Origin: Candidatus Termititenax persephonae
GTDB taxonomy: Bacteria; Margulisbacteria; Termititenacia; Termititenacales; Termititenacaceae
Assembly (NCBI GenBank): GCA_003864475.1
Contig: BGZO01000004.1
Span: 1 to 54,761 of the forward strand
Length of the DNA: 54,761 bases
Direction: 5' to 3'
Shown here: positions 2,990-53,384 of the stretch, one piece after another
Layout: the number at the start of each line of letters is the position of its first letter
How positions within the stretch are numbered: the first letter of the stretch is position 1
The notes under the pieces: model-generated
The model's input: only the letters and a program-made list of their open reading frames with translations
Told to the model about the DNA's origin: nothing
Databases searched by the model: none
Made by a program: the position numbers and the translations under genes

Positions 2990-3778
2990 GTGTTTAGACA
3001 ATTTTATATCGCCGCGACCGGCATGAATGCCATGGAAAAAGACTTGGTCACGATTACCAATAACGTTTCCAATGTCAAAACCACGGGTTTCAAGAAGTCG
3101 CGCATCGAATTGGAAACCTTATTCCCGCAGATTTTAGAGGAAGCGGTGCAGGATGCCGAGACCACTTTTGAAAAAGGCTTGGTGGAGCTGGGTTCCGGTG
3201 TGCGCGTGGTCGGCACGCCCAAGGATTTCTCTTCCGGCACTATCGAGGTTACCAATAATCAGTTGGATGTCGCCATTCAAGGCGAGGGTTTCTTGCGCTT
3301 TCAGCTGCCGGACGGTTCGATAGCCTTCTCGCGCGCCGGCAATCTGCATAAGGATTCGGACGGCCGCTTGGTCAATATCAACGGTTACCCGATGGACCCG
3401 GAAATCCGCATCCCGGACACGGCAACCAACGTTCTGGTTACGACGACCGGCGCGGTGTACGTGCAGGAGGACAATCAGGTTACGCAAAGCCAGATTGGGC
3501 AGATTGAGCTGGTCAAGTTCGTCAACCCGACCTCGCTGAAAAGCGTCGGCGGCAATCTGTACGTGGAGACCGCGGCCTCCGGCATGGGTAGGTAAGGTAC
3601 ACCGGGCGATGAAGGTTTCGGGCAGATTGCCCAGTTCTCGCTGGAGAGCAGTAATGTCGATATCGTGTCGGAGATGATGCAAATGGTTGTTACGCAACGG
3701 TCTTTTGATATTATTTCCAAGGCCATTCAATCCGGCGAAGCGATGCTCAACTCCGCCATCGAAATAGCCCGCGGCTAA
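2990..3778 (+). pseudogene. flgG: Flagellar distal rod protein FlgG interrupted by an in-frame TAA (codon 202 of 263)
   Basis: The N-terminus MFRQFYIAATGMNAMEKDLVTITNNVSNVKTTGFKK is a rod-protein signature. After TAA at 3593..3595 the same frame continues GTPGDEGFGQIAQFSLESSNVDIVSEMMQMVVTQRSFDIISKAIQ..., the conserved FlgG C-terminus, to TAA at 3776..3778. Confidence 0.85.
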
Positions 3779-10639: not shown

Positions 10640-11146
10640 ATGGTAGTCATGCAGTTAAAAGGCAAAGAAAAAGCTTTGGTTTTTCTCGCGACACTCGGCG
10701 ACGAGGTTTCCCGTAAAGTCCTGAGCTGCCTGCCTGATAAACTTTCCGGGCGCATCGCGCACGAGTTAAATAAGTTCAAGAAACCTTCGCCGGAAGCGGT
10801 CGCCTTCGTGCTGAAAGAATTGGTGGCTTTCTCGCTGGAAAAACAGCCGGAACGTCCGCAACTGGAAGCCCCGCCGGAGCAGGTCAAGGAAGAAATTGAC
10901 CCCATCGATGCCACCAGCGAACTGGGCCGGATGCCTCTGCCGGAACTGGTCGCTTTCCTGCAAAACGAAATGCCGCAAACGGCGGCTTTCGTCTTGAGTC
11001 ATTTGAGTCCCGCCCGCCAAAACGGTTATTATGAGTTGGTTTCGCCAGGCCGCCGCAGTGAAATTAAACAGTGCGTAGTGGAAAAAACCCCCTGGGCAGA
11101 CAGTGTTTTTGCCGCGCTCAACGAGCGGGCTAAAGCGGGGAGATAA
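10640..11146 (+). CDS. fliG: Short FliG-like protein (N-terminal and middle-type ARM repeats only)
   Basis: It occupies the fliG position between fliF and fliH. KEKALVFLATLGDEVSRKVLSCLPDK and MPQTAAFVLSHLSPARQ resemble FliG N and M motifs. It is only 168 aa, and no C-terminal torque domain is recognisable. Confidence 0.55.
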   Translation: MVVMQLKGKEKALVFLATLGDEVSRKVLSCLPDKLSGRIAHELNKFKKPSPEAVAFVLKELVAFSLEKQPERPQLEAPPEQVKEEIDPIDATSELGRMPLPELVAFLQNEMPQTAAFVLSHLSPARQNGYYELVSPGRRSEIKQCVVEKTPWADSVFAALNERAKAGR

Positions 11147-20162: not shown

Positions 20163-21362
20163 TTATATAGTCCTGGCAAGGCGAAAGCCGGTATTTCTGT
20201 TGTCAAAGGAGACATTAACAGCCGACGACTCAAAGAAGAAGTCGACTCTATCGGTGTAGGGGTTGTAGTCATTATAAGCACCGCCTCGGATTACATAATA
20301 ATCATTAAAATTCGTATACGTAGTAGTTGAACACCACTCCGCAACATTGCCCAAGACATCGTAGAGGCCGTAGGCATTGGGTTTTTTCTGCCCCACCATG
20401 TGCGGCCGTCCGGAAGAATTGTTGTAATACCAGCCGTATTTGTCCATCTCTGTCTCACTCCAATCATCGCCCCAGATGTACTTCGTCGTCGTCCCGCCAC
20501 GGCAGGCGTATTCCCATTCCGCCTCCGTCGGCAGGCGGTAGCACCCAGCATAACTCGACCCTGCCGCCACATCGTTGTATGCCATAGTTTTTACTCTTAC
20601 ATCATTGTAGTTGTTGCGAAGATTCACTAATCTATTCTGGTCGACATAGTATTGGCGTATTCTGTCCTTGACTGCGGCCGCTACGTCATCGGATTCCAGC
20701 GTCAGGTGCAGGCAGTATTGTACGGCATCGTCCCATGAAGCACGTACCGGGATATGTATGTCCAAATGTGAATCTGAATGTAAATCTGAGTTGTTGGTTG
20801 GGGCATAACCCATCACCCCCACGAACTCATCATACGTTGTTTCGCATTTGGCGATATAGAAACTCCTTCCTCCAGTCTCCAGTCTCACGAACTTACCCAT
20901 GTCCATGACCACCGCCAGCGGTGTAAAACTCTGGAGCAAATCCCACACTGCCTTGGTCGATGGGTATTTATCATCCATTGTATCCGCCGTTATCGTGCTT
21001 ACCCTGTTCGCCGTGCGCTCAATGTCGCCGCATTCTTGCAGATATGTCCACACTGCCTTGCACGTCGGGTATTTCTCGTTGCTGTCCTTGTTGGCCGCCC
21101 AGTTGTCCGACGACGTTACCTTATTTGCCGTAATCTCTTTCCCCGCCGCGTTCTGGACTATTCTCTTCTCCGCCTCTTTCAGCGAGTCTTGGACCACCTT
21201 GGCAGACGGGTACTGCGTATTTGTGTTGCCGTCCGACAGCACCCCCGTCTCCACCTTGTTCGCCACTTTCTCCATGAGGTTGAGCGCCGCTGTCATCTTC
21301 TCCGCGCTTAGCTGTTGCCCGCTCCCGATACCATCGTATGTGTCATTGTAATTGTTGGGCAT
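20163..21362 (-). CDS. Fibre-family protein A1: shared N-module with three YP(S/T)xKAV repeats plus an FGE-sulfatase/SUMF1-type (C-lectin fold) domain
   Basis: [36 protein letters not shown]...[17 protein letters not shown] and KYPSTKAVW form the N-module and repeats. The C-terminal half carries [39 protein letters not shown] and GFRLARTI. There is no signal peptide. Confidence 0.8.
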
Positions 21363-21421
21363 AAGCTGGTTCCTCCACCTTTTTAGTTATTGCGCATAAT
21401 GCACAGTCCCCGCTACCGCTT

Positions 21422-22633
21422 TTAAACAGTCCTGACAATGCGAAACCCAATGTTAGCGGCGCGATGATTGAAGGGGTGGGTATAGGAAAGGTCAAAGGCA
21501 GGATAAATCCCCATAGACCCGCCCCGTATAATACTATTTCGATAATCTTCGTTATTACCACACCACTCCCAAACATTGCCCAAAACATCGTAGAGGCCGT
21601 AGGCATTTGACAGCATCGTCCCAACTTCCCGTACACCATTGGTGTAATACCCCGCATAATTGTTTCTTTCGTATTTATTATCGGCATCCTTTTGATTAAA
21701 ATCGTCGCCCCAGAAGTACTTCGTTGTCGTCCCACCCCGACCAGCATACTCCCACTCGCTTTCGAACGGCAGGCGATAACAACCAAGGCGGCCAGACAAT
21801 GCCGCCAGCTCATTGTATGCCAACGTCTTCGTCCTGCTTGTATAATTATTGTCCCAATCATATGCAGTCTTGCACGCATCCGGGTCGACATAGTACTGGT
21901 GTATCCTGTCCTTGACTCCGTCCGTTACGTCATCGGACTCCAGCGTCAGATGCAGGCAGTATTGTACGGCTTCGTACCATGTAACATTTGCTACCGGAAA
22001 ACGCTTCCTCTCAGGATATACTGGGTTATATGTATATGCTGGGTTATAGCCCATTACCGCCTCGAACTCACCCTGTGTCGTCTCGTATTTGGCGACATGG
22101 AGTTTCCTTGGTCCAATTGCCAGCTCCACGAACTTATCCTCATTCAAGGCCATCTCCAGCGGCGTAAAACTCTGGAGAAAGTCCCACACCGCTTTCGCCG
22201 ATGGGTATTTCCAGCATTCTCTACTATCATTTATATCTGCCGTTATCGTATTTACCTTGTTCGCCGTGCGCTCAATCCTGTTGTTGTCGATGTATTTTTG
22301 TAGTACAGATTCCACCAGATTGCAGGTAGGATATTTCACGTCGCTGTTCTTATAATCGTTCCAGTACCAGACGACCAAGCCGCTCGCCAACTTGTTCTCC
22401 GTAAGTTCCTTGCCCATAGCGTCTTGGGTTATCCTCCTCTCCGCCTCTTTCAGCGAGTCCCAGACCACCTTGGCGGACGGGTACTGCGTATTTGTACTGC
22501 TCCCTGACAGCACCCCCGTCTCCACCTTGTTCGCCACCTTCTCCATCAGGTTCAGCGCTTTCGTCATCTTCTCCGCGCTAAGCTGTTGCCTGCTCCCAAT
22601 ACCGTCATACGTGTCGTTGTAACTGTTTGGCAT
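21422..22633 (-). CDS. Fibre-family protein A2: shared N-module plus an FGE-sulfatase/SUMF1-type domain
   Basis: The first 50 or so aa are about 90% identical to A1. It carries [39 protein letters not shown] and GFRIVRTV. The C-terminal 45 aa are unrelated in sequence to A1. Confidence 0.8.
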   Translation of the reverse strand: MPNSYNDTYDGIGSRQQLSAEKMTKALNLMEKVANKVETGVLSGSSTNTQYPSAKVVWDSLKEAERRITQDAMGKELTENKLASGLVVWYWNDYKNSDVKYPTCNLVESVLQKYIDNNRIERTANKVNTITADINDSRECWKYPSAKAVWDFLQSFTPLEMALNEDKFVELAIGPRKLHVAKYETTQGEFEAVMGYNPAYTYNPVYPERKRFPVANVTWYEAVQYCLHLTLESDDVTDGVKDRIHQYYVDPDACKTAYDWDNNYTSRTKTLAYNELAALSGRLGCYRLPFESEWEYAGRGGTTTKYFWGDDFNQKDADNKYERNNYAGYYTNGVREVGTMLSNAYGLYDVLGNVWEWCGNNEDYRNSIIRGGSMGIYPAFDLSYTHPFNHRAANIGFRIVRTV

Positions 22634-22652
22634 GGTTTTATCCTTTTTTTAG

Positions 22653-23165
22653 TTATTTGCGCGCCGTGAAAAGATTGTGCATCCTGAACCTTCGCCAGAT
22701 GGCATTTATTACCCCTTCTACCGTCGGATATTTGTCGTCCGTGGAAAACATGGAGATATCGATACGGTTGGAATCGTGGCTGTTGATGTAGTAGAAGAAA
22801 CGACCGTCGTAATCACTCCTGTTTGTGGTAAGTTCCATGCCACCACCACTGACGGCGGCATTCCATGCGGCCTCTAGGGCGCCGCAACTCGGGTATTTCA
22901 CGTCGCTGTTCTTGTTGTCGTTGGCTCCCCATGTCGTGGATGTTACTTTGTTGTCCGTGATTTCCAAGCCTGCCCCGCTCAAGGCCGCGATGGCCGCATG
23001 CGCAGCCTTCGCCGATGGGTATTGCGCCGCCGTGCTGTTCGCCGTTACCGCGTCAGTCTTGTTTGCCACGCGCTCCAGCAAGTTCAGCGCCGCGGTCATC
23101 TTCCCGGCTTCCGCCTTCACGCCTTTGGTTATCCCCGCGTAGCCGCTTGTGTATGGTGATGCCAT
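22653..23165 (-). CDS. Fibre-family protein A3 (short member, N-module plus small C-terminal domain)
   Basis: [36 protein letters not shown]...QYPSAKAA, VKYPSCGALEAAW and DKYPTVEGVINAIW mark it as a family member. It is the first gene of the A3-A2-A1 operon. Confidence 0.7.
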   Translation of the reverse strand: MASPYTSGYAGITKGVKAEAGKMTAALNLLERVANKTDAVTANSTAAQYPSAKAAHAAIAALSGAGLEITDNKVTSTTWGANDNKNSDVKYPSCGALEAAWNAAVSGGGMELTTNRSDYDGRFFYYINSHDSNRIDISMFSTDDKYPTVEGVINAIWRRFRMHNLFTARK

Positions 23166-23198: not shown

Positions 23199-23209
23199 AG
23201 TATAGCACA
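23199..23209 (-). promoter_or_regulatory. Extended -10 element (TGTGCTATACT) for the A3-A2-A1 operon
   Basis: It lies 34 nt upstream of the A3 ATG. The pattern TGTG(C/A)TA(T/A)ACT is conserved at the same distance in the fibre loci at 41501 and 53416, with variants at 31764 and 26399. Confidence 0.5.
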
Positions 23210-23319
23210 TCTTATCATAAAACACAAGAAAAATATTTAATAGTATTTTGTAAATGACAGAGGTTTTTTTATAGTTAAACTATCTATGATAAATAACTAG
23301 TAGAAAGGATTTATAGTAG

Positions 23320-23742
23320 ATGGACATACAAATTGAACAAAGGTTGAAGACCTTGATTAGTAAAAAGCTACAATTGTTGCGTAAAAGAGACAATTGCACT
23401 ATGGAAAAAACCGCTGATTTTCTGGACTTAGATTATTCTCTGTATCATGGTTTGTTGCACGGCACCAGATTGCCGCACTTAGCCACGCTCATGAAAATCA
23501 ATCAAGCCTACGGATTAAATATGGACTGGTGGTTTAGAGATTTTGCTGAAACCTACTCTGCCGCCGCGCCATTGCTTAAAGTAAATGTGGCCAAAAAAGC
23601 CGCCGAAAAGGAATTATTAGGGAACTTCAACAAATTGGATGCCCGCTCCCAAAAAGCCCTGCAAAGAATCCTCAAAACTATGCTCAAGAAACGCCGCGAC
23701 CGCCTTCCGCTCAATAATGTGTATTTTCTTCAATGCGCTTGA
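23320..23742 (+). CDS. XRE-type HTH regulator R1 (fibre-locus-associated paralog family)
   Basis: 140 aa. The HTH region reads TMEKTADFLDLDYSLYHGLLHGTRLPHLATLMKINQAYGLNMDWWFRD, and the C-terminal motif is FNKLDARSQKALQRILK. It is divergent from A3 and paralogous to R2, R3 and R4. Confidence 0.8.
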   Translation: MDIQIEQRLKTLISKKLQLLRKRDNCTMEKTADFLDLDYSLYHGLLHGTRLPHLATLMKINQAYGLNMDWWFRDFAETYSAAAPLLKVNVAKKAAEKELLGNFNKLDARSQKALQRILKTMLKKRRDRLPLNNVYFLQCA

Positions 23743-23764
23743 ATGTTTTAAATATACTCAAAAA

Positions 23765-24217
23765 TTAATTGTTTTTCATGAATAAATTTAGTTCTTCTTT
23801 TAAAACAGCCCATATTTCCTCCATGTTGACCACCAAATCTTCTATTTCTGTCCATTTTAATTTAAAACTATAGGCGTGCCTGACAAAATGGCGGAAATTC
23901 AAATATTCACTTATTTTTTCTTTAAAGTCTTCTCTAAACACGGCTGTTCTAAGGTTTGTTTGTTCAAAGGCTCTGTCCAATAGTTTTTTATGCCATTTAT
24001 CGCCAATAGGAATTTCTGCATCTATCTGTTTTACAATCAACAACAATATATTTTCTACACCGTTATAAAAAGAATGCAGACATAATGCGGCGGCAGATAA
24101 TTCTACAAAATCCGGCACTTTTATTTTACACAGAGCCAGCAATGGTTCAGCATCACTAAGCAATTGATCTAGTTGCGTTATTTCAAACTCTATCTTTCTC
24201 TTAACACCGCTATCCAA
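23765..24217 (-). CDS. hepT: HEPN-domain toxin (HepT-like, type VII TA)
   Basis: 150 aa with the Rx4HxY motif RHFVRHAY. It overlaps the upstream nucleotidyltransferase gene by 8 nt. Confidence 0.7.
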   Translation of the reverse strand: MDSGVKRKIEFEITQLDQLLSDAEPLLALCKIKVPDFVELSAAALCLHSFYNGVENILLLIVKQIDAEIPIGDKWHKKLLDRAFEQTNLRTAVFREDFKEKISEYLNFRHFVRHAYSFKLKWTEIEDLVVNMEEIWAVLKEELNLFMKNN

Positions 24218-24515
24218 TTTTCACAACCTCGCCCAAAGAATTTAGCAGGGCAAAGAAATCTTTATTTTCATCAAAATCCACCAAATCAACCTTTTTAGTT
24301 AGACGGTCATCCAGCTTGGCATAAACTTTAAAAAATTTTTTCTCTGGCAGACCAGAGATGCCGATATCTATATCCGAATGTTTGTGCAGGTGTCCTGTTA
24401 CCAGTGAACCAAACAAATACACAGCCCCGCACCCCTCGCTTTTTAATAAAGCCGAGGCCGTGTCTACGTCCTGCCGATAATCTTCTGGAAGTTTAAGTGA
24501 TTCCATACACAACAT
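24210..24515 (-). CDS. mntA: Minimal nucleotidyltransferase antitoxin (MntA-like)
   Basis: 101 aa with the GSxxxG...SDIDIG motif (LFGSLVTGHLHKHSDIDIGISG). Confidence 0.75.
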   Translation of the reverse strand: MLCMESLKLPEDYRQDVDTASALLKSEGCGAVYLFGSLVTGHLHKHSDIDIGISGLPEKKFFKVYAKLDDRLTKKVDLVDFDENKDFFALLNSLGEVVKIG

Positions 24516-24543
24516 AATATTCTATATTAGACTGGATTTCAAT

Positions 24544-24603
24544 TTAATGAAGTCTGAGCGCCGCCGCCTTATATGACGAGCGCACGAAAATCCCGGAAAA
24601 GAC
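24544..24603 (-). pseudogene. Relic copy of the lipA 3' end
   Basis: It reads FSGIFVRSSYKAAALRLH*, against FSGPFVRSSYRAAEVYLSV* at the end of lipA. Positions 24561..24603 match 25294..25336 at 39/43 nt. Confidence 0.75.
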
Positions 24604-24610
24604 ATAATTT

Positions 24611-24880
24611 CTAAGCAAAGCTGACTTTTAGTTTTCTTCCCGTAGCCAGAGCAATTTTGCTCAGAAATTCTAACGTCGGATTATAATTACCGCTTTCCAA
24701 ACGAGAAATATTGGATTGTTTTGTGCCAATTAATTCCGCCAAGCGTTTTTGCGTAAATTTCTTTTCCTTACGCGCCAAAATTATATCTCCAATAATTTTA
24801 TATTCCATCTTATTGTTTTCTAATTCCCGGCGGACTTCTTTATTCTTTAAAATTATTTTTTTCGCTTTGTGCCAATTCAT
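24611..24880 (-). CDS. XRE-family HTH antitoxin (HigA-like)
   Basis: 89 aa with FTQKRLAELIGTKQSNISRLESGNYNPTLEFLSKIA. It overlaps the upstream toxin gene by 4 nt. Confidence 0.8.
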   Translation of the reverse strand: MNWHKAKKIILKNKEVRRELENNKMEYKIIGDIILARKEKKFTQKRLAELIGTKQSNISRLESGNYNPTLEFLSKIALATGRKLKVSFA

Positions 24881-25233
24881 AGGTGCTTCCTCCTTTTGTA
24901 ATCATTTATTCTGGCGACAGCTACTGCTAATTCTTTTTGCGGTGTTTTATTAGCCTTCTTAACAAAGCCATGTAATAAAACACAATGGTTAGCATAAAAC
25001 ATAAAGTAAAAAATCCTAAAAGCATCCGAACCAAATTTTATTCTTAATTCCCATAAAGATTTTTCTCCCTCTATCTTCCTAACATGCGGAAAATGTAAGG
25101 CGTTGCCAAACTTTTCCAATAATTCAATTTCCCGATATATTTTAGCCTGCTGTTTCGGCGCTAAAGACAAAATAAAACCAAGCACGGGACTATTGCCGCT
25201 GTTTTTCTCGTACAACTCAATCACATATTCCAT
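24877..25233 (-). CDS. Gp49-like / HigB-RelE superfamily toxin
   Basis: 118 aa. The pattern LWELRIKFGSDAFRIFYFMFYANHCVLLHGFVKKANKTPQKEL matches phage Gp49/DUF891-type toxins. The order is toxin first, as in higBA. Confidence 0.7.
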   Translation of the reverse strand: MEYVIELYEKNSGNSPVLGFILSLAPKQQAKIYREIELLEKFGNALHFPHVRKIEGEKSLWELRIKFGSDAFRIFYFMFYANHCVLLHGFVKKANKTPQKELAVAVARINDYKRRKHL

Positions 25234-25273
25234 GACTATAATATATCATATATGATATTAGTGTCAAGTATTA

Positions 25274-26116
25274 TTATACTGACAAATAAACCTCCGCCGC
25301 CCTATATGACGAGCGCACGAAAGGCCCGGAAAACACCGCCTTAAAACCCAGTTCTTTTTCGCCGTATTCTTGATATTCCGCGAATTTGTCGGGGTGGACA
25401 AATTCTTGGACTGGATAATGTTTGGGGGACGGCGGCAAATACTGGCCAAGCGTAACGATAGACGCGCCGCTGTCTTTCAAATCCTGCAGCGTGGACTTTA
25501 TCTCCGCTTCTGTCTCGCCCAAGCCCAGCATCAGTCCGGTCTTGGTCAGGATGCCGGATTGCGCGGCATGGCGCAAAATGTTCAGCGAACGCTGATAATC
25601 CGCCTGCGGACGAATCGCCGCGTATAGGCGCGGGACGGTCTCGACATTGTGATTGAAAACGTCCGGCGAGGCGGCAAGAACTTTGTCCAGCGCGCCAAGG
25701 CTACCCTGAAAATCGGGAGTCAGAACTTCGACAGCGGCGCGCGGCAGTCCCTGCCGCGCCGCCAGAATGGCGGCGGCGAAATGCGCCGCGCCGCCGTCCG
25801 GCAAGTCGTCGCGCGTTACCGAGGTGATGACAATGTGCCGCAGTCCCAGTTTCCGCGCGGCTTGGGCAATTTTTTGCGGCTCGTCAGCATCCACAGGCTC
25901 CGGCGCGGCCTTGGTTACGGCGCAGAAGCGGCAGCCGCGCGTGCAGACCCCACCGAGAAGCAGAAATGTTACAGTTCTCCGGGCAAAACATTCTCCGCGG
26001 TTGGGGCAGAGCGCGGACTCGCAGACCGTCCGCAGGCTGTCGTCAAGATAGGCGCGGATGCGCAGTCCGGCGGCGGACTTGGGGACATTTTTTTTTAGCC
26101 AAGAGGGGTACGCCAT
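25274..26116 (-). CDS. lipA: Lipoyl synthase
   Basis: 280 aa with two Cys clusters, CESALCPNRGEC and CTRGCRFCAV (radical SAM). Confidence 0.9.
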   Translation of the reverse strand: MAYPSWLKKNVPKSAAGLRIRAYLDDSLRTVCESALCPNRGECFARRTVTFLLLGGVCTRGCRFCAVTKAAPEPVDADEPQKIAQAARKLGLRHIVITSVTRDDLPDGGAAHFAAAILAARQGLPRAAVEVLTPDFQGSLGALDKVLAASPDVFNHNVETVPRLYAAIRPQADYQRSLNILRHAAQSGILTKTGLMLGLGETEAEIKSTLQDLKDSGASIVTLGQYLPPSPKHYPVQEFVHPDKFAEYQEYGEKELGFKAVFSGPFVRSSYRAAEVYLSV

Positions 26117-26230: not shown

Positions 26231-26342
26231 GGTCGCGCCCTTGGTATTATTTTTTGGGCAAAGAATACCCCAAAAAATATCACGCCGCCGCTGGTCGCGG
26301 CTTGGTATTATTTTTTGGGCAAAGAATACCCCAAAAAATATC
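26231..26342. repeat. Two tandem copies (61-bp period) of a hairpin-forming unit in the lipA/B1 divergent region
   Basis: CTTGGTATTATTTTTTGGGCAAAGAATACCCCAAAAAATATC is identical over 42 bp at 26240..26281 and 26301..26342, and both copies are preceded by GGTCGCG. Each unit can form an 11-bp stem (TATTTTTTGGG / CCCAAAAAATA) or the alternative GGTATT / AATACC stem. Confidence 0.9.
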
Positions 26343-26409: not shown

Positions 26410-26573
26410 AATAAAATATTCTGGACAATCAGCCGCCGCGCCGACACACAAAGCGCGAGGCGTATGACAAGGAGACATCTCATGGTTAGTAGCAAGACAC
26501 TAGGACACTCAGATAACCGCGCGGCCGCCGCGGAGTTTCCGCGCCGTTCAGGCGTAGTGTTAAGTAACATTTA

Positions 26574-26585
26574 CCCCCCCCCCCC
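26574..26585. repeat. Homopolymeric C12 tract in the leader of the B1-B4 operon
   Basis: Twelve consecutive C residues, counted directly, lie 137 nt upstream of the B1 start codon. Confidence 0.95.
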
Positions 26586-26722
26586 AAGATTTTTCGCGTA
26601 GATAAGCCAAAAACCAATCATCACACAAAAGACATCCACCGTGGTACCGTTCTAACGGCGGCCGTCCACGCCTCGGCACCCGGACGCGCTGACGGCCAGG
26701 AACAAACTGGGGGGATGACATC

Positions 26723-27214
26723 ATGACCATAGCGACAAATCAATTAATCACGGCGAGCGACATGACGGCCGCCCTGAACACCAAGGAGCAGGTGGTCAAC
26801 AGGGTCGACGCGGTTGGTTCCTCATCCACGGACGACCAGTACCCGTCCTCCAAGGCGGCCAGTGCCGTAATCAGCTCCATACGCAATGTCTCGCTGAAAG
26901 ACAAAGCCTTGGACAATGCCGTTATACACCTGAACTCCGCCGATGCGGCGAGCATATCCGGGGCAAAGAATTTCAAGACCTCGCCGACGATAGCGAACAC
27001 CGCCACCGAGGCGGGGAATTACAATAACAAGCTGGCCTTCGAGGCACAGTTGTACGCCATTAACAGCCGGGTCGAAAAGACAGTCAGCAAGGTCAGCAAC
27101 TCCAACTGGGCATCGTACAGCAGCAGCGACGACCATTATCCCAGCTGCGCGGCTGTCTATAAGGCCATAGAGGACTTGAAAAGTACACTGCGCACGGCGG
27201 GGATGATTGATTAG
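26723..27214 (+). CDS. Fibre-family protein B1 (short member)
   Basis: ITASDMTAALNTKEQVVNRVD...DQYPSSKAASAVI and DDHYPSCAAVYKAIEDL mark it as a family member. A G6 Shine-Dalgarno tract precedes it. Confidence 0.7.
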   Translation: MTIATNQLITASDMTAALNTKEQVVNRVDAVGSSSTDDQYPSSKAASAVISSIRNVSLKDKALDNAVIHLNSADAASISGAKNFKTSPTIANTATEAGNYNNKLAFEAQLYAINSRVEKTVSKVSNSNWASYSSSDDHYPSCAAVYKAIEDLKSTLRTAGMID

Positions 27215-27257
27215 GCAGGGTTTTATTTTGACTTGATTTTTTCTGGGGGGGAGAAAT

Positions 27258-28091
27258 ATGGCAGGTAATTACAGCAGGACATACGACGGGATAGCGAAGG
27301 GCAGCTCCCTCAGCGCGGCAAAGACGTGTGCGGCGCTAAACCTCCTAGAGCAGACGGCATACAGGGATACGACGGTCGGCAGCAGCGCAGACAGGTATCC
27401 GACCGTCAAGGCGATACAGGATGCCGGGCTGGAGGGCGAAATCAATGCCCGAGCCGCCGACAGCGCCGTCCTGCACAGGACAGACAATAAGACGGAGACG
27501 ATATCCGTGGCGAAGACCTTTACCGCCATGCCGTCCGTACCGATAAAGGCTTCGACACCGGGAAACAACCTGACGACCATAGCCACGGAGGCGCAACTCT
27601 ACAATGTCTACAATGGCACGGAGAAGACGGGTAATAAAAAAAGCACCATCACCGCCAGCAGCACCAACACGGAATACCCCACGTGCAGCGCCGTGTCCAA
27701 CGCGCTGAATACCGTGATAGGATTGATTAAGAACGAGATTACTTTTTACCCGAGCGATTTATATACTGCCAGCTCGACAAAACTTCCCGTTAATAGGACC
27801 ACCCGGACGATTACTTGGAACATCGGGACGATTAGAAGTAAGGACGTAAAAAAAACAACGATTCTCGACGGTGGCTATGCCATGCTTGGTCACATCACGT
27901 GTTGCGCACCTCAGGAGAACATGGTATTTACCGTCTATACCACCAGCAATGGCAACGCACACTCCGGTCAAAGTGCCACGCTGACCATCGATATTTACGG
28001 TAGGGTCATGCTCTCCAATGTTTTATACTGTACCGCGCATCCCGGCATCGCGACTATTTATTACAACACATCAATCAGCTGGACATATTAG
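27258..28091 (+). CDS. Fibre-family protein B2 (N-module plus unknown beta-rich C-terminal domain)
   Basis: MAGNYSRTYDGIAKGSSLSAAKTCAALNLLEQTA...DRYPTVKAIQDA and TEYPTCSAVSNAL mark it as a family member. I did not recognise the C-terminal 110 or so aa. Confidence 0.7.
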   Translation: MAGNYSRTYDGIAKGSSLSAAKTCAALNLLEQTAYRDTTVGSSADRYPTVKAIQDAGLEGEINARAADSAVLHRTDNKTETISVAKTFTAMPSVPIKASTPGNNLTTIATEAQLYNVYNGTEKTGNKKSTITASSTNTEYPTCSAVSNALNTVIGLIKNEITFYPSDLYTASSTKLPVNRTTRTITWNIGTIRSKDVKKTTILDGGYAMLGHITCCAPQENMVFTVYTTSNGNAHSGQSATLTIDIYGRVMLSNVLYCTAHPGIATIYYNTSISWTY

Positions 28092-28100
28092 GGGGGATTT

Positions 28101-29357
28101 ATGGCACGGAACTCTTACAGCGACAGTTACAACGGGATAACGGCCGGGAACAGGGCCAAGGCCTCCGACATCAACAATGCCCTGGCCAAGATGCAGAATG
28201 TGAGCGACAAGCTGACATCTGCCACGACCAACGCGGACTCATACGCCAGCTTCACTGCCAACTCCGCCAACCACAACATGTACCCCTCGGCCAAGCTGCT
28301 CCACATGGTCAAGGGTCATCTGGACTCGCTGATCCCGTCCAAGGCCGATGACAGTACGGTCGCGCATCTGGCGGGTAGCGAGGACATCTATGGGCAGAAG
28401 CATTTCTCCGTGGCGCCCACGGTGCCGACCAAGGGCAACATCCCGGCAAATGCCAACGGCACGACAATCCCGACGACACAAGCCCAAGTATATGCGGTAA
28501 ACAATGCCAATCTTGAACTCACGAGCAACAGGGTGGACAGCTCCGCCTGGAATAATAACAATACCAGCATGACTAAATACCCCACGTGCAGGGCCGTGCA
28601 GGCCGCCATAGACAGTATTGACGCAAGTGGTTTTCCGACACCTCCGGATCCCCCGCCACCAACACCAGCACCGACACTGGGACCAGCAGCACCATCGACA
28701 AAGTTTATCTTCACCGGAGATGTTCAAATATTTACCGTACCAGAAGACGGCACGTATAGGCTTGAGGTCTGTGGCGCACAGGGAGGGAATGTTAATAATT
28801 ATTTTGGCGGTAAGGGTGGCTACACAAAATGTAATATATCCTTGACCACAGGTAACACACTTTACGTCTATGTCGGTGGCCAAGGCGGCTATAACGGCGG
28901 CGGCGTATCGACTGGTAACGGTAAAGGTACGCTTTATGGTGGTGGCGCTACCGATATACGTCTTGGAGGACAAAATTTAACCAATCGTATAATCGTGGCA
29001 GGCGGTGGTGGCGGTGCGGGGAGCAGCATAGACGGCGGTCCAGGAAATGATGACTCACATATTAATTCATCGCTGGGAATCGGCTCCAGCTATGGCCATG
29101 GTTGTTCCAATAATGTAGGTGCGGGCGGTGGAGGTTTGCATGGCGGACTATCCGGGTCTGACAGCGGTGGTGCGATTGCAAAGGGCTATGGCGGTTCTGG
29201 TGGTTTTGTCGGAAACGCAACCGACGGTTCCGCGGAGACAGGCATACGTGAAGGCGATGGCATAGCCAGAATAACGCTACTGTCGGAGGGTCCACTCTGG
29301 GTGCCGGATGAGGGTCCACTCTGGGAGGATGGGATTCTCGCGGAGGAGACTCTCTAG
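28101..29357 (+). CDS. Fibre-family protein B3: N-module, Pro-rich linker and ALK/LTK-type glycine-rich domain
   Basis: MARNSYSDSYNGITAGN...MYPSAKLL and TKYPTCRAVQAAI form the N-module. The linker reads PTPPDPPPPTPAPT. It is followed by FTVPEDGTYRLEVCGAQGG..GGKGGYTKCNISLTTGNTLYVYVGGQGG...GGGATDIRL...NRIIVAGGGGGAG, the pattern of the Gly_rich (PF12810-like) family. Confidence 0.7.
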   Translation: MARNSYSDSYNGITAGNRAKASDINNALAKMQNVSDKLTSATTNADSYASFTANSANHNMYPSAKLLHMVKGHLDSLIPSKADDSTVAHLAGSEDIYGQKHFSVAPTVPTKGNIPANANGTTIPTTQAQVYAVNNANLELTSNRVDSSAWNNNNTSMTKYPTCRAVQAAIDSIDASGFPTPPDPPPPTPAPTLGPAAPSTKFIFTGDVQIFTVPEDGTYRLEVCGAQGGNVNNYFGGKGGYTKCNISLTTGNTLYVYVGGQGGYNGGGVSTGNGKGTLYGGGATDIRLGGQNLTNRIIVAGGGGGAGSSIDGGPGNDDSHINSSLGIGSSYGHGCSNNVGAGGGGLHGGLSGSDSGGAIAKGYGGSGGFVGNATDGSAETGIREGDGIARITLLSEGPLWVPDEGPLWEDGILAEETL

Positions 29358-29777
29358 GTGTCGGCCTCGCTGACGGAGATACAAATCACTTGGTACAATG
29401 CCGTGAGGAAATGCATCGAACAGACGCACGCCGCCTCTGACGTGCCGACCGACGTGAAGTCCGACATGACCGCCAATGGGTACACAGCCAGCGCCACTGA
29501 GGCAAACTGCATCGCCTATCAGGACACATACGCCCCCGGCAAGAGAATGGTCTACCGCCTGCTGACGGAGGCGGAGTGGATAGAGTGCTATAAGACGGGC
29601 AAGCTGAACTCCCACCCCCAATTCGAATGGGTCGGGGATGCTTATGATTTTTCTCGTCGTGTTTTGCGTATTTATGATAATCCTACTAATCGATCTAATG
29701 ACTCTCCCGGCGATGATTACTTCAACTACTACAGCATCTACAACAGCTACGGTTTTAGGCTTGCCAGGATTGTTTAA
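29358..29777 (+). CDS. Fibre-family protein B4: stand-alone minimal C-type-lectin/FGE-like domain
   Basis: The GTG start immediately follows the B3 TAG and is in the same frame, with GGAGGAG 9 nt upstream. TWYNAVRKC, YRLLTEAEWIEC, FEWVGD and YGFRLARIV parallel the FGE-domain landmarks. The protein is homologous to the C-terminal domain fused in E1. Confidence 0.65.
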   Translation: MSASLTEIQITWYNAVRKCIEQTHAASDVPTDVKSDMTANGYTASATEANCIAYQDTYAPGKRMVYRLLTEAEWIECYKTGKLNSHPQFEWVGDAYDFSRRVLRIYDNPTNRSNDSPGDDYFNYYSIYNSYGFRLARIV

Positions 29778-31673: not shown

Positions 31674-31763
31674 TTGCCACCTGCTTAAAGAAAGTTTAGT
31701 CAGCTTCCCAAAATTACTACATGGTAAATACATCAATAAATAATTATTGCTTTTTACTACAAG

Positions 31764-31774
31764 ATATGCTATAA
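31764..31774 (+). promoter_or_regulatory. -10 element (TATGCTATAAT) for D1
   Basis: It lies 38 nt upstream of the D1 ATG, the same spacing as in the other fibre loci. Confidence 0.45.
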
Positions 31775-31812
31775 TTTTTTCAGTAAGTAAGTTTTCTTTG
31801 GGGGGAATGGTT

Positions 31813-32793
31813 ATGGCAAATGATTATGGCGACCAAGCAAAATATAAGGCGGAGCCTTATAACATAGATTCCGAGAAGAGGATTACGGCCTCGGGCATGA
31901 GGACGGCCCTAGGGACGAAAGAGGACGTGGCGAACAAGAAAGATACCCTCGCCAACAGTTCCACAGAGTATCCGTCATCCGCGGCTGTCTACGCGCACAC
32001 GTCCAATAAAAACAACCCGCACGGCGTAACCAAGGCGCAGGTGGGCCTGGGCAGCGCGGACAATACGAGCGACGCGAACAAGCCTATCTCGACGGCGACA
32101 CAAACCGCGCTGAACGGCAAGCAGGCCCTGCTCCCCGTCGGCACGATACTGATGTATGACGGCACGGGCTGGGCGGACAACAGCACGTTGCCCGGCTGGT
32201 ACCAGTGCAACGGTAAGAACGGCACGCCAGATTTGCGGGACAAGTTCATCCGCGGCGGCAGAAGCGGTGAAAACATGGCGCGCGGCGGGACGGGCGGCGC
32301 GGACAGCCGGAGCATAACCCTACAGAAGGTCAACCTGCCGAGCCACAATCATAGTCTGACCGCCCTGACGCTGGGTAACGAGTCGGCGCACACACACTCC
32401 GTCTCGGCCACCACGGACACCAAGACACACAGCCATACATTTAGTGGAAACAATCTCTCCGGGGATACTCCATATTTTCAAATGGATTATTCAAGAACGG
32501 GTACTAATAATACAAATGGAATTATAACCAGCACGACCCAAGTAGGCGGTTCGACTGATAGCGGCGGCGGACATGACACTTGCGCTTCTTTTTCAATAAG
32601 CTTTACCCCTTCTGGCACAATCAACGGCAACGGCAGCCACGCGCATAGCTTTACCGCGACCAGCGGTGCCGGGAGCGGACACACGCACAGCCTGTCCAGC
32701 TCGACAATCAGCAATACCGGCTCCGGCACGGCGTTCACCGTCGACACCGTACCGACTTACTATTCCATGATTTATATCAGGAGATGCGCGTAG
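31813..32793 (+). CDS. Fibre-family protein D1: N-module, phage-fibre GLG..NTSD..KP motif, tail-collar domain and His-x-His repeats
   Basis: I chose the start at MANDYGDQAKYKAEPYNI by comparison with E1 and E2, after a G7 tract. It carries ITASGMRTALGTKEDVANKKDT...EYPSSAAVYAHT, AQVGLGSADNTSDANKPISTATQTALNGK, and GTILMYDGTGW..PGWYQCNGKNGTPDLRDKFIRGG (Phage_Tail_Collar-like). The His-rich part reads SHNHS, AHTHSVS, THSHTFS, SHAHSFT, GHTHSLS. Confidence 0.8.
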   Translation: MANDYGDQAKYKAEPYNIDSEKRITASGMRTALGTKEDVANKKDTLANSSTEYPSSAAVYAHTSNKNNPHGVTKAQVGLGSADNTSDANKPISTATQTALNGKQALLPVGTILMYDGTGWADNSTLPGWYQCNGKNGTPDLRDKFIRGGRSGENMARGGTGGADSRSITLQKVNLPSHNHSLTALTLGNESAHTHSVSATTDTKTHSHTFSGNNLSGDTPYFQMDYSRTGTNNTNGIITSTTQVGGSTDSGGGHDTCASFSISFTPSGTINGNGSHAHSFTATSGAGSGHTHSLSSSTISNTGSGTAFTVDTVPTYYSMIYIRRCA

Positions 32794-40096: not shown

Positions 40097-41000
40097 CTAG
40101 GCAATCCTAGAAAGTCTGAAACTGATAGCGTTACCGGGGTTGACGTACGCGCCGTACATGTAGTGGAGGGTGGGATCTCCGTAAAGATAAGGATGGATAT
40201 CATACCTCCAGTACATAATAACACGATTATCGGAATCATGGGCATCCCCTACCCACTCGAAAAAGGTGCCGCCGTTGGGGGGGGGTACTCAGCTTGTTTG
40301 TGGTACGGCACTCCATCCACTCTGCCGCCGTCAGTAGCCGATAAATTTTGTGCCTGCCCGGTACATACATGTCCTGATAGGAGATGCAGTTTGCCTCAGT
40401 GGCGCTGGCTGTGTACCCATTGGCGGTCATGTCGGCTTTCACGCTATACGGCACGTCCGTAGCGGCATGCGTCTCCTCGATGCACTTCCTCACGGCATCG
40501 TACCAAGTGGTTCTCACCGATGTCTGCGAGGCCGACACCCGGAGTCTTGGCTTCGATGCTTGTACGAAGTCCCACACCGCCTTGGCCGTCGGGTAGTGAG
40601 AGTGAGTGGATGACACGCTGATAGATTGCACCCAAGTAATTGTGTTTTGCTTGTTGTTCAACGCGGTCTGTTCGGCGGACGAAATTGCTCTGCCCGCGTC
40701 GCTCGTGTTGTTCACGCTGCCCAAGCCTATGTCGGACTTCGTAAATATCCGTGTCGAGGGGAGCGCCCCGAGTTGTGCTATGGTTACGCCGTGCGGGTTG
40801 CTTTTATTGGACGTGTGCGCGTAGGCGGCCTTGGCTGACGGGTAATATGTGGAGTTGTCAGTGATGGTGTCCTGCTTGTTCGCCACGTCCTCTTTCGTCC
40901 CTAGGGCTGTCCTCACGCCCGAGGCCGTAATCGCCTTGCCGAAATTTATATTGTAAGGGTTTTCCTCGTATTTTGCTTGGTCGCCGTAATTACTCGCCAT
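40097..41000 (-). pseudogene. Fibre-family protein E1 (N-module, GLG..NTSD motif, C-terminal minimal CLec-like domain) with its frame broken at a C9 tract
   Basis: With 9 C residues the ORF stops at 40236 (254 aa, ...KLSTPPQRRHLFRVGRGCP*). Removing one C gives ...KLSTPPNGGTFFEWVGDAHDSDNRV...NAISFRLSRIA*, which ends at 40097 (300 aa) and is colinear with B4. Confidence 0.8.
40277..40285. repeat. Homopolymeric G9 (C9 on the coding strand) tract inside E1
   Basis: Nine consecutive G residues, counted directly, sit exactly at the E1 frame break. Confidence 0.95.
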
Positions 41001-41018
41001 GACGGCATCCCCTCTCTT

Positions 41019-41471
41019 TTAAAGTTCACGCTGAACCAGTTCATACACCGCCTGGGCCGTCGGGTACTCATAGTGAGTGGACGACGCGCTGATAGAAGTT
41101 GCCCAAGTAATTGTGTCTTGCTTGTTGTTCAACGCGTTCTGCGTCAAGGTTGAGACGGGCTTATTTATGTCGCTCGTGTCGTTCACATTGCCCAAGCCTA
41201 CGTCGGATTTCGTGGGTACCCATGTCGAAAGACGCGCACCAATCTGCCCCGCCGTTACGCTGTGCGGGTTGTCCACCCTAGACGTGTGCGCGTAGACGGC
41301 CTTGGCTGACGGATAATATGTGGAGTTGTCAGTGATGGTGTCCTGCTTGTTCGCCACGTCCTCTTTTGTTCCCAAGGCTGTTCTCACGCCCGAGGCCGTA
41401 ACCACCTTATCGGAACTTATATTGTAAGGACTCTCCTTATATTTTATCTGGTCGCCATAATCGTTTGCCAT
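41019..41471 (-). CDS. Fibre-family protein E2 (short member with GLG..NTSD motif)
   Basis: I chose the start at MANDYGDQIKYKESPYNI. It carries VTASGVRTALGTKEDVANKQDTITDNSTYYPSAKAVYAHT and SDVGLGNVNDTSDINKPVSTLTQNALNNK. The DNA of its N-terminal region is about 95% identical to E1. Confidence 0.75.
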   Translation of the reverse strand: MANDYGDQIKYKESPYNISSDKVVTASGVRTALGTKEDVANKQDTITDNSTYYPSAKAVYAHTSRVDNPHSVTAGQIGARLSTWVPTKSDVGLGNVNDTSDINKPVSTLTQNALNNKQDTITWATSISASSTHYEYPTAQAVYELVQREL

Positions 41472-41500
41472 AACCATCCCCCAACTTAAACCTTGCAATG

Positions 41501-41511
41501 AGTTTAGCACA
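41501..41511 (-). promoter_or_regulatory. Extended -10 element (TGTGCTAAACT) for E2-E1
   Basis: It lies 30 nt upstream of the E2 ATG and belongs to the conserved TGTGnTAnACT pattern. Confidence 0.5.
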
Positions 41512-41595
41512 TATATTGTATAAAGTCAATTGGATTATAAACAACAATCGGGCAATGTTTAATCTCTAAAATAATTAAAAGGCGGTCAAGAAATA

Positions 41596-41940
41596 ATGTC
41601 CAATCTCCAGCAATTAAAAAGCCATCTCGGCAAATGTTTAAAAGATTTACGCTTAAAGAAAAATCTAACTATCGAGGTCTTAACTGGCTTAATCGACATG
41701 GACTTTTCCAATTATGTCCACCTAGAAACCGCCCGCCGCAGTAACCCTACTTTGGAAACTTTATATAAGTTGGCAGAATTTTACGGTGTTTCTATCCATT
41801 ATTTTTTTCAAGACTACAAAAGCACCGCCGCGCTAGCGCCCAAAACTAATGTTCTCGAAAAAAAGTTATTAAAAACTTTCCGCCGTCTCCACCCCGACAG
41901 CCAGCGGCTTTGTGTCCAATTTCTTGCCAGCGTTAAGTAG
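41596..41940 (+). CDS. XRE-type HTH regulator R3 (most divergent fibre-locus regulator paralog)
   Basis: 114 aa with TIEVLTGLIDMDFSNYVHLETARRSNPTLETLYKLAEFYGVSIHYFFQD and FRRLHPDSQRLCVQFL. It is divergent from E2. Confidence 0.7.
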   Translation: MSNLQQLKSHLGKCLKDLRLKKNLTIEVLTGLIDMDFSNYVHLETARRSNPTLETLYKLAEFYGVSIHYFFQDYKSTAALAPKTNVLEKKLLKTFRRLHPDSQRLCVQFLASVK

Positions 41941-51971: not shown

Positions 51972-53384
51972 TCAGTTCACTCTCATTATATAAATTACCG
52001 TATAGTAACTCGGCACGGTGGCGACAGTGAACACTGTGCCAGAACCTGTAGCGGCTGTCGAGCCACCCACTGTCCCGCCGGAAACCGTCCCTGTTACGGA
52101 ATGGGTGTGTGCGCCCGCGGAAGAGGCCTTGCTGGTGGATGTGAAATCGTGTATATGCGCACCATCGGAAGCGGCTGTGCCTGAAGTCGAATGCTCATGT
52201 GCGCCATCATGGTCTATTGTAATACCTGTCGTACTATAATAAGTATTTGTTTTATATGAAGCATCTTTAAGGAGTCCGCCGCTTTCATACACAGTTTCAG
52301 GATTTCCGCCCGTACTATCCATATGCCCCAATTCGTGCCTGTGTCCACTCCCACTGTTAGGCTCGATAATTCCGTGGCTATGACCCCCCGCTAATATTGT
52401 AGAACCAGTTGTTGAATGTTCATGGTTTCCTGCGAGAGCGGCTCCGCCGGATAGGTCATGCTCATGCGCACCGTCAGAGGCCGCGACACCATCCGTAAAG
52501 GACAGACCTGATATGGACAGTCCGGTCGCTCCGTGATTGTGCGCGGGTAAATTTGCTGTCTGTAAGGTTATGCTCCGGCTGTCCGCGCCGCCAGTCCCGC
52601 CGCGCGCCATGTTTTCACCGCTTCTGCCGCCCATGATGAACTTGTCCCGCAAATCTGGCGTGCCGTTCTTGCCGTTGCACTGGTACCAGCCTTTCAACGT
52701 GCTGTCATCCGTCCAGCCCGTGCCGTCATAAATCAGTATCGTGCCGATAGGGAGCGCGGACTGAAGGGTGGCGACGGCTTGCGTCCCGGGTTGCCCGCCC
52801 GCCGTGGCCGGGGCTGTCAGTAAGTTTGCTGGGTCTGTCGCGGTTATCTTGTCCTGCTTGGCGGACAATTTCGTGTTGACATCGTTCTTCGTGTAATATT
52901 GCGTGTCGTGGGTGTGGCTATCGCTCAGTACCTGCCACGTCTTGTCGCCGCGCCAGTATTTGGCGTTCGTCCCCATCGCGATGGTGGCTTCCTTGCCGCT
53001 CAGCGCGGTGTAAATGCCGCCGGACGTTACGGGGTTCCCGCTGTCCGCCGTGGGCGTGCTGTCGAAGGTCAATGTGTCCTGTTTCCTGTCGAGGTTCGCC
53101 CCCACCAGCGTGGACGACGGGTAGTAGTCATTGAGAGAATCGCCGTTCAAGGTGTTGTCGGCGTGGTCGCTGGTCTTGCTGGTGTCGTATATCTGTTTGT
53201 TTTCCACCTTCTCCTTGGTGTGCAGGGCGTTCCGCATCCCTTCCGCCGAGATTTTCTTCTCGGAGTATATGTCGTATGCTACGTTCTCTCCATTTTCGTT
53301 TACATATATCCCATTGATGAAGTCCGTGTCTTCCGTGCTGTTCGTGCCATCTACGTATTTCGTGTATTTATTTGCGTTCGCCAT
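51972..53384 (-). CDS. Fibre-family protein F1: extended N-module, tail-collar domain and long His-x-His / G-[AG]-H-x-H repeat region
   Basis: ISAEGMRNALHTKEKVENKQ...DYYPSSTLVGANL forms the N-module. GTILIYDGTGWTDDSTLKGWYQCNGKNGTPDLRDKFIMGG is the tail-collar block. The His-rich part reads AHNHGA, GAHEHDLS, GNHEHSTT, GGHSHGI, GHRHELGH, GAHEHSTS, GAHIHDFT, GAHTHSVT. The C-terminus FTVATVPSYYTVIYIMRVN parallels D1. Confidence 0.8.
   Translation of the reverse strand: MANANKYTKYVDGTNSTEDTDFINGIYVNENGENVAYDIYSEKKISAEGMRNALHTKEKVENKQIYDTSKTSDHADNTLNGDSLNDYYPSSTLVGANLDRKQDTLTFDSTPTADSGNPVTSGGIYTALSGKEATIAMGTNAKYWRGDKTWQVLSDSHTHDTQYYTKNDVNTKLSAKQDKITATDPANLLTAPATAGGQPGTQAVATLQSALPIGTILIYDGTGWTDDSTLKGWYQCNGKNGTPDLRDKFIMGGRSGENMARGGTGGADSRSITLQTANLPAHNHGATGLSISGLSFTDGVAASDGAHEHDLSGGAALAGNHEHSTTGSTILAGGHSHGIIEPNSGSGHRHELGHMDSTGGNPETVYESGGLLKDASYKTNTYYSTTGITIDHDGAHEHSTSGTAASDGAHIHDFTSTSKASSAGAHTHSVTGTVSGGTVGGSTAATGSGTVFTVATVPSYYTVIYIMRVN

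Follow-up and report, generated by a model that had tools for sequence, protein, structure and literature searches.

A nine-cytosine tract in a tail-fibre-like gene of Candidatus Termititenax persephonae is a candidate slippage switch for a lectin-like tip module

Introduction

In this study, we analyzed the fibre-like gene E1 and the run of nine C residues inside it, located on the minus strand of contig BGZO01000004.1 of Candidatus Termititenax persephonae (Margulisbacteria; GenBank assembly GCA_003864475.1). The whole stretch of DNA that was analyzed, positions 1 to 54,761 of the contig (54,761 nucleotides, nt), is referred to as the window. As assembled, E1 is cut short by a frameshift at the tract, and a complete protein with a lectin-like tip is obtained when the tract is read with 8 or 11 C residues. 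We tentatively read E1 as a slippage-prone gene captured in its OFF state, and weigh this reading against gene decay, consensus error and recoding. In Neisseria meningitidis, homopolymers of at least 8 nt are mostly variable and G/C tracts dominate the strong phase-variable candidates (PMC5084427).

Results

The C9 tract and the reading frames of E1

E1 as assembled (40236..41000, minus strand) is an open reading frame (ORF) of 254 amino acids (aa), composed of a fibre shaft, the first 89 residues of a tip module and 15 out-of-frame residues. Across the tract, the minus strand reads ...AAGCTGAGTA-CCCCCCCCC-AACGGCGGC..., with a run of exactly 9 C (40277..40285; G9 on the plus strand), or in codons AAG CTG AGT A-CCCCCCCCC-AA CGG CGG. 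The tract codes for Thr-Pro-Pro in a loop (E1 aa 239-241, module residues 90-92) and is the site of the frameshift. In the C9 frame, translation stops after 17 codons, and the assembled protein has the C-terminus ...NKLSTPPQRRHLFRVGRGCP*.

Deletion of one C (C8) extends the E1 ORF to 300 aa, ending ...LSTPPNGGTFFEWVGDAHDSDNRVIMYWRYDIHPYLYGDPTLHYMYGAYVNPGNAISFRLSRIA* with the stop codon at 40097-40099. C11 leads into the same frame with one extra Pro (301 aa), and C10 leads into the third frame, which stops after 13 codons. The 3' remainder of E1 in the C8/C11 register (40097..40276, minus strand) consists of 59 codons and a TAG and encodes all beta-strands as well as the GFRL-type C-terminus of the lectin-like module; the junction-spanning peptide of the restored protein is LSTPPNGGTFFEW. 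A preliminary description of this DNA had stated that the C9 run ends E1 at 254 aa and that the C8 or C11 frame reads on to 40097. Both statements were correct when the run and the ORF were re-read, and the tail of the resulting 300/301-aa ORF matches that of a full-length orthologue, P0001.

Shaft and tip of the E1 protein

The N-terminal shaft (residues 1-149; 40554..41000, minus strand) is tail-fibre-like and has a conserved MA(S/N)(N/D)YGDQ head followed by GLGxVNNTSD...KPxS repeats. It matches tail fibre and minor tail families of PHROG with E values of 1e-8 to 1e-10, and over the repeat of ~40 aa the PHROG matches range from 1e-8 to 1e-11. P0001 bears the NCBI name 'phage tail fiber protein'. 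With the frame restored, the tip module comprises E1 aa 150-300 (40097..40553, minus strand). It was classified as C-type-lectin (CLec)/formylglycine-generating-enzyme (FGE)-sulfatase-like by profile homology (hhalign), and its structure was modelled with AlphaFold2 (AF2) and compared using Foldseek.

An exhaustive hidden Markov model (HMM) search with the tip module among 1.8 billion representatives returned 8 matches, one of them spurious. The same few relatives were found by a word-based search, nearly all of them being T. persephonae proteins, together with two JGI metagenome proteins. A ten-member tip profile aligned with the two PF03781-verified proteins of the window (hhalign 98.1%, E 9.7e-14), whereby only module columns 12-85 were covered. 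In Pfam, restored E1 had no match at E <= 0.01 and stayed below the PF03781 gathering score, and one of ten module relatives reaches E = 0.005. The tip-module alignment contains conserved core motifs including the GFR-AR C-terminus, and the sequence matches of the tip in the PDB are formylglycine-generating enzymes only (RLPTEAEW and WEWC motifs; E about 1.4). The preliminary description had placed the tract in the lectin-like C-terminal domain of a fibre gene. The profile homology agrees with this placement and at this level, below the Pfam threshold, supports the label 'CLec-like domain'.

The AF2 model of the tip on the ten-sequence alignment reached a predicted local distance difference test score (pLDDT) of 84 and a predicted template modelling (TM) score (pTM) of 0.85. 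This alignment needed the proteins P0051-P0056 from the exhaustive HMM search, and an alignment of 4 sequences gave a pLDDT of 42. The best Foldseek neighbour of the model is a weak one, the C-terminal domain of Legionella Lcl (E 0.08, prob 0.93), and the second, also weak, is the CLec tip of Bdellovibrio Bd2740 (E 0.34). Snake-venom CLecs were found as well (E 2-3), and TM scores are only 0.33-0.48 across the matches of the tip model. A viral structure library gave weak matches only, namely to the S74 fibre and DUF1566.

In the model, the loop encoded by the tract lies between helix 76-84 and strand 98-104. It has 4 residues in the E1 paralog B4 and in P0051, P0052 and P0053, 5 in P0001, 6 in the B4 counterpart P0007 and 8 in E1. 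Since loop length is variable in the family, extra prolines should be tolerated. According to the model, none of the five beta-strands remains in the C9 product, and the hypervariable C-terminal face is missing as well. The shaft is kept, so that the frameshift is predicted to be a true functional knock-out of the tip.

Orthologue P0001 and the segment downstream of the tract

The T. persephonae protein P0001 (353 aa) spans the entire restored E1 and has no Pro-Pro tract. Both proteins are identical at 111 of 121 residues before the tract (92%) and at 53 of 56 residues after it (95%), and the 59 codons downstream of the tract contain zero stops in the C8/C11 register. Judged by this comparison, the restored tail is real coding sequence and shows no sign of relaxed constraint. 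From the high downstream identity and the open frame it follows that the frameshift is very recent, reversible or artefactual.

In the loop, LS-Y-GSTFFEW of P0001 aligns with LS-TPPN-GGTFFEW of E1. The corresponding E1 DNA, AGT [A CCCCCCCCC] AAC GGC GGC ACC, has 10 extra nt (A + C9) relative to P0001. The AAC codon of E1 is homologous to the Tyr codon of P0001, and C8 therefore equals a clean insertion of 9 nt, i.e., 3 codons. We also considered E1 as a mosaic derived from B4, because an inverted-repeat arm stops at the tract, but rejected this origin as the upstream part of E1 is far nearer to P0001 (92%) than to B4.

Long G/C runs in the window

The excess of long G/C runs and their association with the fibre family were computed on the window alone. 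It contains ten 6-mers, one 7-mer, no 8-mer, one 9-mer and one 12-mer. A log-linear fit over lengths 1-7 predicts 0.075 runs of at least 9 nt and 0.0006 runs of at least 12 nt; two runs of at least 9 nt were observed, which is a ~25-fold excess. Markov simulations of order 0 to order 3, which ignore the observed depletion, gave an expectation of 0.18-0.5 runs of at least 9 nt. The G/C runs of at least 7 nt are all located in fibre clusters, namely C12 at 26574-26585, G7 at 27245-27251 and the G9 of E1 at 40277-40285. With its 9 nt, the E1 tract exceeds the level of ~8 nt at which Neisseria homopolymers are variable (level from PMC5084427).

No G/C run in the window is longer than the C12 tract (26574..26585, plus strand). 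This tract has an intergenic or leader position within a divergent region of 600 nt, where it lies inside a 45-aa ORF (26464..26601), and is followed after 137 nt by the first gene of fibre cluster B (26723..29777). Read in the other registers, C13 or C10 would lengthen this ORF to an ATGA overlap with the start codon at 26723, and C12 is a candidate second phase-variable site. The same intergenic region contains two perfect 42-nt direct repeats (CTTGGTATTATTTTTTGGGCAAAGAATACCCCAAAAAATATC; 26240-26342), 61 nt apart and each internally palindromic, which may act as operator or terminator-like element or may be a small mobile repeat. The G7 run is a Shine-Dalgarno-like sequence 7 nt before the ATG of the gene 27258..28091. 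The first gene of cluster B has a G6 at the matching position, G-rich ribosome-binding sites being a feature of this cluster.

Fibre genes and genomic context

About eleven fibre-like genes were found in the window. The N-terminus is conserved in this family, and the tips are lectin-like, FGE-sulfatase or tail-collar-type. They form five islets, at 20163-23165 (minus strand; cluster A), 26723-29777 (plus strand), 31747-32793 (plus strand), 40097-41510 (minus strand; cluster E) and 51972-53384 (minus strand), and the nearest relatives of the encoded proteins are annotated T. persephonae proteins. The fifth locus encodes a 470-aa protein with matches to the tail-fibre families phrog_8469 and phrog_2097 and no Pfam match.

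In cluster E, E1 is accompanied by E0 (41019..41477, minus strand), a short shaft-only fibre paralog and tandem duplicate of the E1 N-terminus. The duplication comprises 40574-41461 with a 471-nt period and 79% identity. The counterpart of E0-E1 is the T. persephonae gene pair P0003 and P0001, located on one 2-kb contig; each of the two proteins is one fibre repeat unit longer than E0 and E1, respectively, so that the number of repeat units is variable. Upstream of E0-E1 lies a sigma-70-like promoter match, TAAACA-16-TATAAT (41534..41561, minus strand), which is a consensus match only. It is followed by a divergent gene for an XRE-family helix-turn-helix (HTH) regulator (41596..41940, plus strand) adjoining E0-E1. 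XRE-family HTH genes are located divergently upstream of cluster A (23320-23742) and of cluster E (41596-41940), which suggests that each fibre islet brings its own repressor.

The window is chromosomal and carries flagellar genes, clpB, the trp operon, plsX/fabH, dus, a subtilase gene and a phosphoglycerate mutase gene. Neighbours of E1 are a histidine kinase gene, the XRE regulator gene and the trp operon. The histidine kinase is 62-72% identical to proteins from metagenome-assembled genomes of termite-gut Candidatus Margulisbacteria. On two related Margulisbacteria contigs, the synteny of histidine kinase, S8 peptidase and MazG is kept and no E1-like gene is present beside the kinase, which marks the E0-E1-XRE unit as accessory. 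Capsid, tail, baseplate and terminase genes were not found in the window, and the fibre genes are located outside a prophage, tailocin or contractile-injection cluster. A viral contig collection contained no relatives of the tip module.

The tip module of B4, the paralog of the E1 module (29358..29777, plus strand; 139 aa), is cut from its Gly-rich N-terminal part (28101..29357, plus strand; 418 aa; PF12810) by an in-frame TAG at 29355-29357. In P0007, both parts are fused and Trp is present where B4 has the TAG. In the preliminary description, B4 had been named as an intact paralog colinear with restored E1. The colinearity holds in the C-terminal module, but the fibre gene as such is split. 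A GGAGGA motif is located 10 nt before a GTG following the TAG; separate translation of the 139-aa module is conjecture. Reassignment of stop codons, considered for the TAG of B4 together with an in-frame TAA in flgG, was rejected, as the two codons differ and both also end well-supported genes.

At the start of the contig, positions 1-46 are the last 46 nt of another lectin/FGE-family gene (...GFRLARTI*). A stretch of 28 nt there is 96% identical to the 3' end of the gene 20163..21362, and the likeness runs past the stop codon (TAAGrTTTGGGGCTGAT). The assembly probably breaks inside a family paralog at this point; alternatively, a shared 3' element of the type found in diversity-generating retroelements (DGRs) may be present. 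Second copies of four 3' segments were searched for in the window, and none was found except this 28-nt match. A DGR was rejected as a source of variation, with no reverse transcriptase among the scanned ORFs of the window (Pfam) and no template repeat in the window; one may lie elsewhere in the genome. A further islet at 23200-25340 has a low GC content (37-40% vs about 53%). It encodes a HepT-like toxin (23765..24217) and a Gp49/HigB-like protein (24877..25233). A 43-nt repeat (24561-24603 and 25294-25336; 91%) duplicates the 3' end of a radical-SAM gene, and the islet looks like an integrated toxin-antitoxin island.

Discussion

Interpretation of the C9 tract

The most likely reading, in our view, is that E1 contains a genuinely slippage-prone tract captured OFF. 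This makes it a candidate contingency locus, of a type that is well known but new for this phylum. We hold this reading with slightly less than even confidence. E1 would be a phage-tail-fibre-like adhesin consisting of a repeat-containing fibre shaft and a C-type-lectin/FGE-sulfatase-like tip of 150 aa, presumably acting at the cell surface. With C9, the ribosome would leave the frame and stop 17 codons on, leaving a shaft that lacks the beta-strands and the variable tip face at the C-terminus (OFF). A run of 9 C should be long enough for slipped-strand mispairing during replication, whereby daughter cells with C8 or C11 would form the complete protein of 300 or 301 aa with TPP or TPPP in the loop (ON), and C10 would be OFF as well, in another frame. 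C9, and with it the OFF state, would be what the sequenced cell or cells carried. In a population, tract length would be expected to vary, and an adaptive use of the switch is likewise what we infer.

This reading starts from several observations: the tract and its three frames, a downstream segment that is homologous and conserved, the assignment of the tip domain, and long G/C tracts that are in statistical excess and associated with the fibre family. As in contingency loci, the repeat is uninterrupted, lies in an ORF and exceeds ~8 nt, one register gives an intact-looking ORF, and in the window long G/C tracts are over-represented and all located in fibre clusters. The tract had been described beforehand as a classic signature of a contingency locus. 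Its length, its register and the G/C-tract excess fit this description, but P0001 is devoid of the tract and plain pseudogenes are present in the window.

Several points weigh against a switch. The sole orthologue, which is available as protein only, reads LSYGSTFFEW and has no C-run. Due to this absence, the tract is to be taken as young or lineage-specific and not as a conserved switch. In the alignment with B4, each base of the C9 of E1 has its counterpart in CCCACCCCC (Ser-His-Pro), and the difference in frame shows as an indel of 13 nt immediately downstream. The original insertion may thus never have been in frame, and the alignment leaves it unproven that E1 ever existed as C8. The C-rich counterpart in B4 indicates an ancestrally C-rich loop in this family, and point mutation together with slippage could turn such a loop into a pure run. 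Scans with peptide patterns yielded no orthologous DNA in genome, metagenome or viral contig collections, and exact-protein look-ups for P0001, P0007, P0002 and P0059 gave no record either. A flank pattern with free tract length had no match in metagenomes. Its one match in genomes, in a 2-oxoacid dehydrogenase E2 gene of Calditrichaceae (KKLSIDEMNGGTF), was a chance hit of no relevance to E1. The tract is seen in a single consensus sequence, in which length polymorphism is not observable. No signal peptide or secretion context for the putative surface location of E1 was found in the window.

Gene decay not involving homopolymers is also evident in the window and is unambiguous for flgG, fliG and B4. 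The flgG gene (2990-3760) has an in-frame TAA at 3593-3595, beyond which the Flg_bbr_C-like C-terminal rod domain continues in frame. The fliG gene (10640-11146) stops at 168 aa, so that only the N domain and the beginning of the M domain are encoded; its C-terminal domain was nowhere found. The neighbouring genes flgA/H/I and fliF/H/I/J look intact. Furthermore, both genes of the module type, E1 and B4, are disrupted and P0001 and P0007 are intact, which favours relaxed selection.

Alternative explanations

These signs of decay make a plain recent pseudogene the strongest competitor, although we still consider it unlikely. A dispensable fibre gene in a decaying symbiont genome would have received a 10-nt out-of-frame insertion or a fixed +1 slip, and the tract would have no switching role. 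The nonsense codon in flgG, the truncation of fliG, the TAG in place of Trp in B4, the intact counterparts of the two disrupted module genes, the absence of the tract from P0001 and the accessory nature of the E0-E1-XRE islet, missing beside the syntenic histidine kinase in two related contigs, would all be in line with this. However, the 59 downstream codons are stop-free, and their divergence does not exceed that of the upstream part, which would place the inactivation in the very recent past. C9 is also intrinsically unstable, and revertants should arise whether selected or not. Moreover, decay does not account for the excess of long G/C tracts in the fibre family.

In the third explanation, which we rate as slightly less likely than decay, E1 is an ordinary intact gene of 300 aa with a true tract of C8 (or C11), the extra C stemming from whole-genome amplification, library PCR, sequencing or assembly. 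A fully open downstream frame with 95% identity to P0001 is what an intact gene would show, and the contig is part of a draft genome of an uncultured symbiont. The Termititenax genomes were presumably obtained after whole-genome amplification, and G/C homopolymers of 9-12 nt are the most error-prone ones for amplification and short-read chemistry. Nevertheless, a majority error at a 9-mer is uncommon in a short-read consensus. The 34 domain-supported intact ORFs (37.5 kb) include 25 A/T runs of 7-9 nt, all of which leave the frame unbroken, and this argues against a general homopolymer-indel problem in the assembly. The caveat of the preliminary description, namely that an erroneous consensus would look the same, stands, weakened by the intact frames at these 25 other long homopolymers. 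An artefact would also leave unexplained why all long G/C tracts fall in one gene family.

Recoding at the level of expression, in which a stable C9 would yield some full-length protein, at a fixed low ratio to the truncated form, by +1 slippage of tRNA-Pro on CCC-C or by RNA-polymerase slippage, is very improbable, as the 111-nt region folds no better than shuffled sequences (z = +0.9) and so gives no sign of a stimulatory structure, CAA in the A site is a common codon (41% of Gln codons), P0001 lacks the slippery site and needs no such event, and no Rfam element is present anywhere in the window. CCC-C is a +1-prone site, and transcriptional slippage on homopolymers rescues frameshifts in insect endosymbionts. 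A shift of the P-site tRNA-Pro from C6-C8 to C7-C9 would read AAC GGC GGC ACC... and give exactly the C8 protein, so that a leaky OFF state by such a slip is possible. For programmed frameshifting at C9 there is no indication, and a programmed site was rejected: CCC-C is slippery, but stimulatory structure, slow codon and conservation in the orthologue are missing.

Implications

If the slippage reading of E1 is extended to the whole family, Termititenax-type Margulisbacteria would attach to their spirochaete or protist partners via chromosomal adhesins derived from tail fibres, with a shared N-terminal anchor and swappable tips. Individual tips would be switched by poly-C/G tracts, placed inside the tip itself as the C9 of E1 or in a cluster leader as the C12 of cluster B. 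We put this forward as a speculative model that we consider unlikely. The adhesin repertoire would comprise at least 5 loci with about 11 genes in 35 kb of the window. If the model were true, it would be the first contingency-locus system in this uncultured phylum and would combine a fibre arsenal like the MAT fibres of Bdellovibrio with phase variation in the style of Campylobacter. Variation of the tract would provide the first example of simple sequence repeat (SSR) phase variation in Margulisbacteria and would indicate the fibre proteins as mediators of the symbiont-on-symbiont attachment of Termititenax, the lectin-like tip being a concrete candidate for binding studies. In case of an error or a pseudogene, the results are of practical use in annotation, where E1 would need a flag for its homopolymer frameshift, B4 one for the interrupting TAG, and flgG and fliG one for decay.

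Comparison with known systems

E1 resembles the contingency loci of Campylobacter, Neisseria and Haemophilus in several respects. An uninterrupted G/C run of at least 8 nt is located in an ORF, and long G/C tracts are in excess, one of them upstream of a paralogous cluster. In addition, one of three registers gives the full protein, and the product is plausibly surface-interacting (PMC5084427). Unlike these loci, E1 is known from one consensus of an uncultured Margulisbacteria ectosymbiont, and the tract is not present in the T. persephonae orthologue. In contrast to a genome-wide phasome, two or three tracts were found here in 55 kb.

In Campylobacter phages, polyG tracts are located in receptor-binding protein genes. 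The hypermutable polyG tracts of such phages are the subject of Sorensen et al. (2021, Cell Rep 35:109214). As in phage polyG/contingency loci (bioRxiv 10.1101/2025.10.21.683753), the homopolymer would act as a hypermutable frameshift switch, and in E1 it is placed in the fibre tip. Unlike the phage loci, E1 lies outside a phage or prophage, and its tip module has no relative among viral contigs.

With the MAT fibres of Bdellovibrio (PMC10769870), the family shares chromosomal phage-fibre-like paralogs with interchangeable adhesive tips at the C-terminus. The tip of Bd2740, a C-type-lectin trimer (PMC10769870), ranks second among the structural matches of the E1 tip model; the match is weak (E 0.34, TM 0.33-0.44), with no sequence homology detected. 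The MAT fibres differ by their size of about 1000 aa, and homopolymer switching is not reported for them.

The trimer mode of Bd2740 matches that of Mtd (PMC10769870), and the DGR variable proteins Mtd and TvpA resemble the E1 tip in its putative fold class and in a hypervariable segment rich in Asn, Tyr, Ser and Gly before a conserved GFRLAR-type C-terminus. Unlike in DGR systems, reverse transcriptase and template repeat are absent from the window, and the variable segments of E1 and P0001 are almost identical. Diversity in E1 would stem from frameshifting, as opposed to mutagenic retrohoming in Mtd and TvpA.

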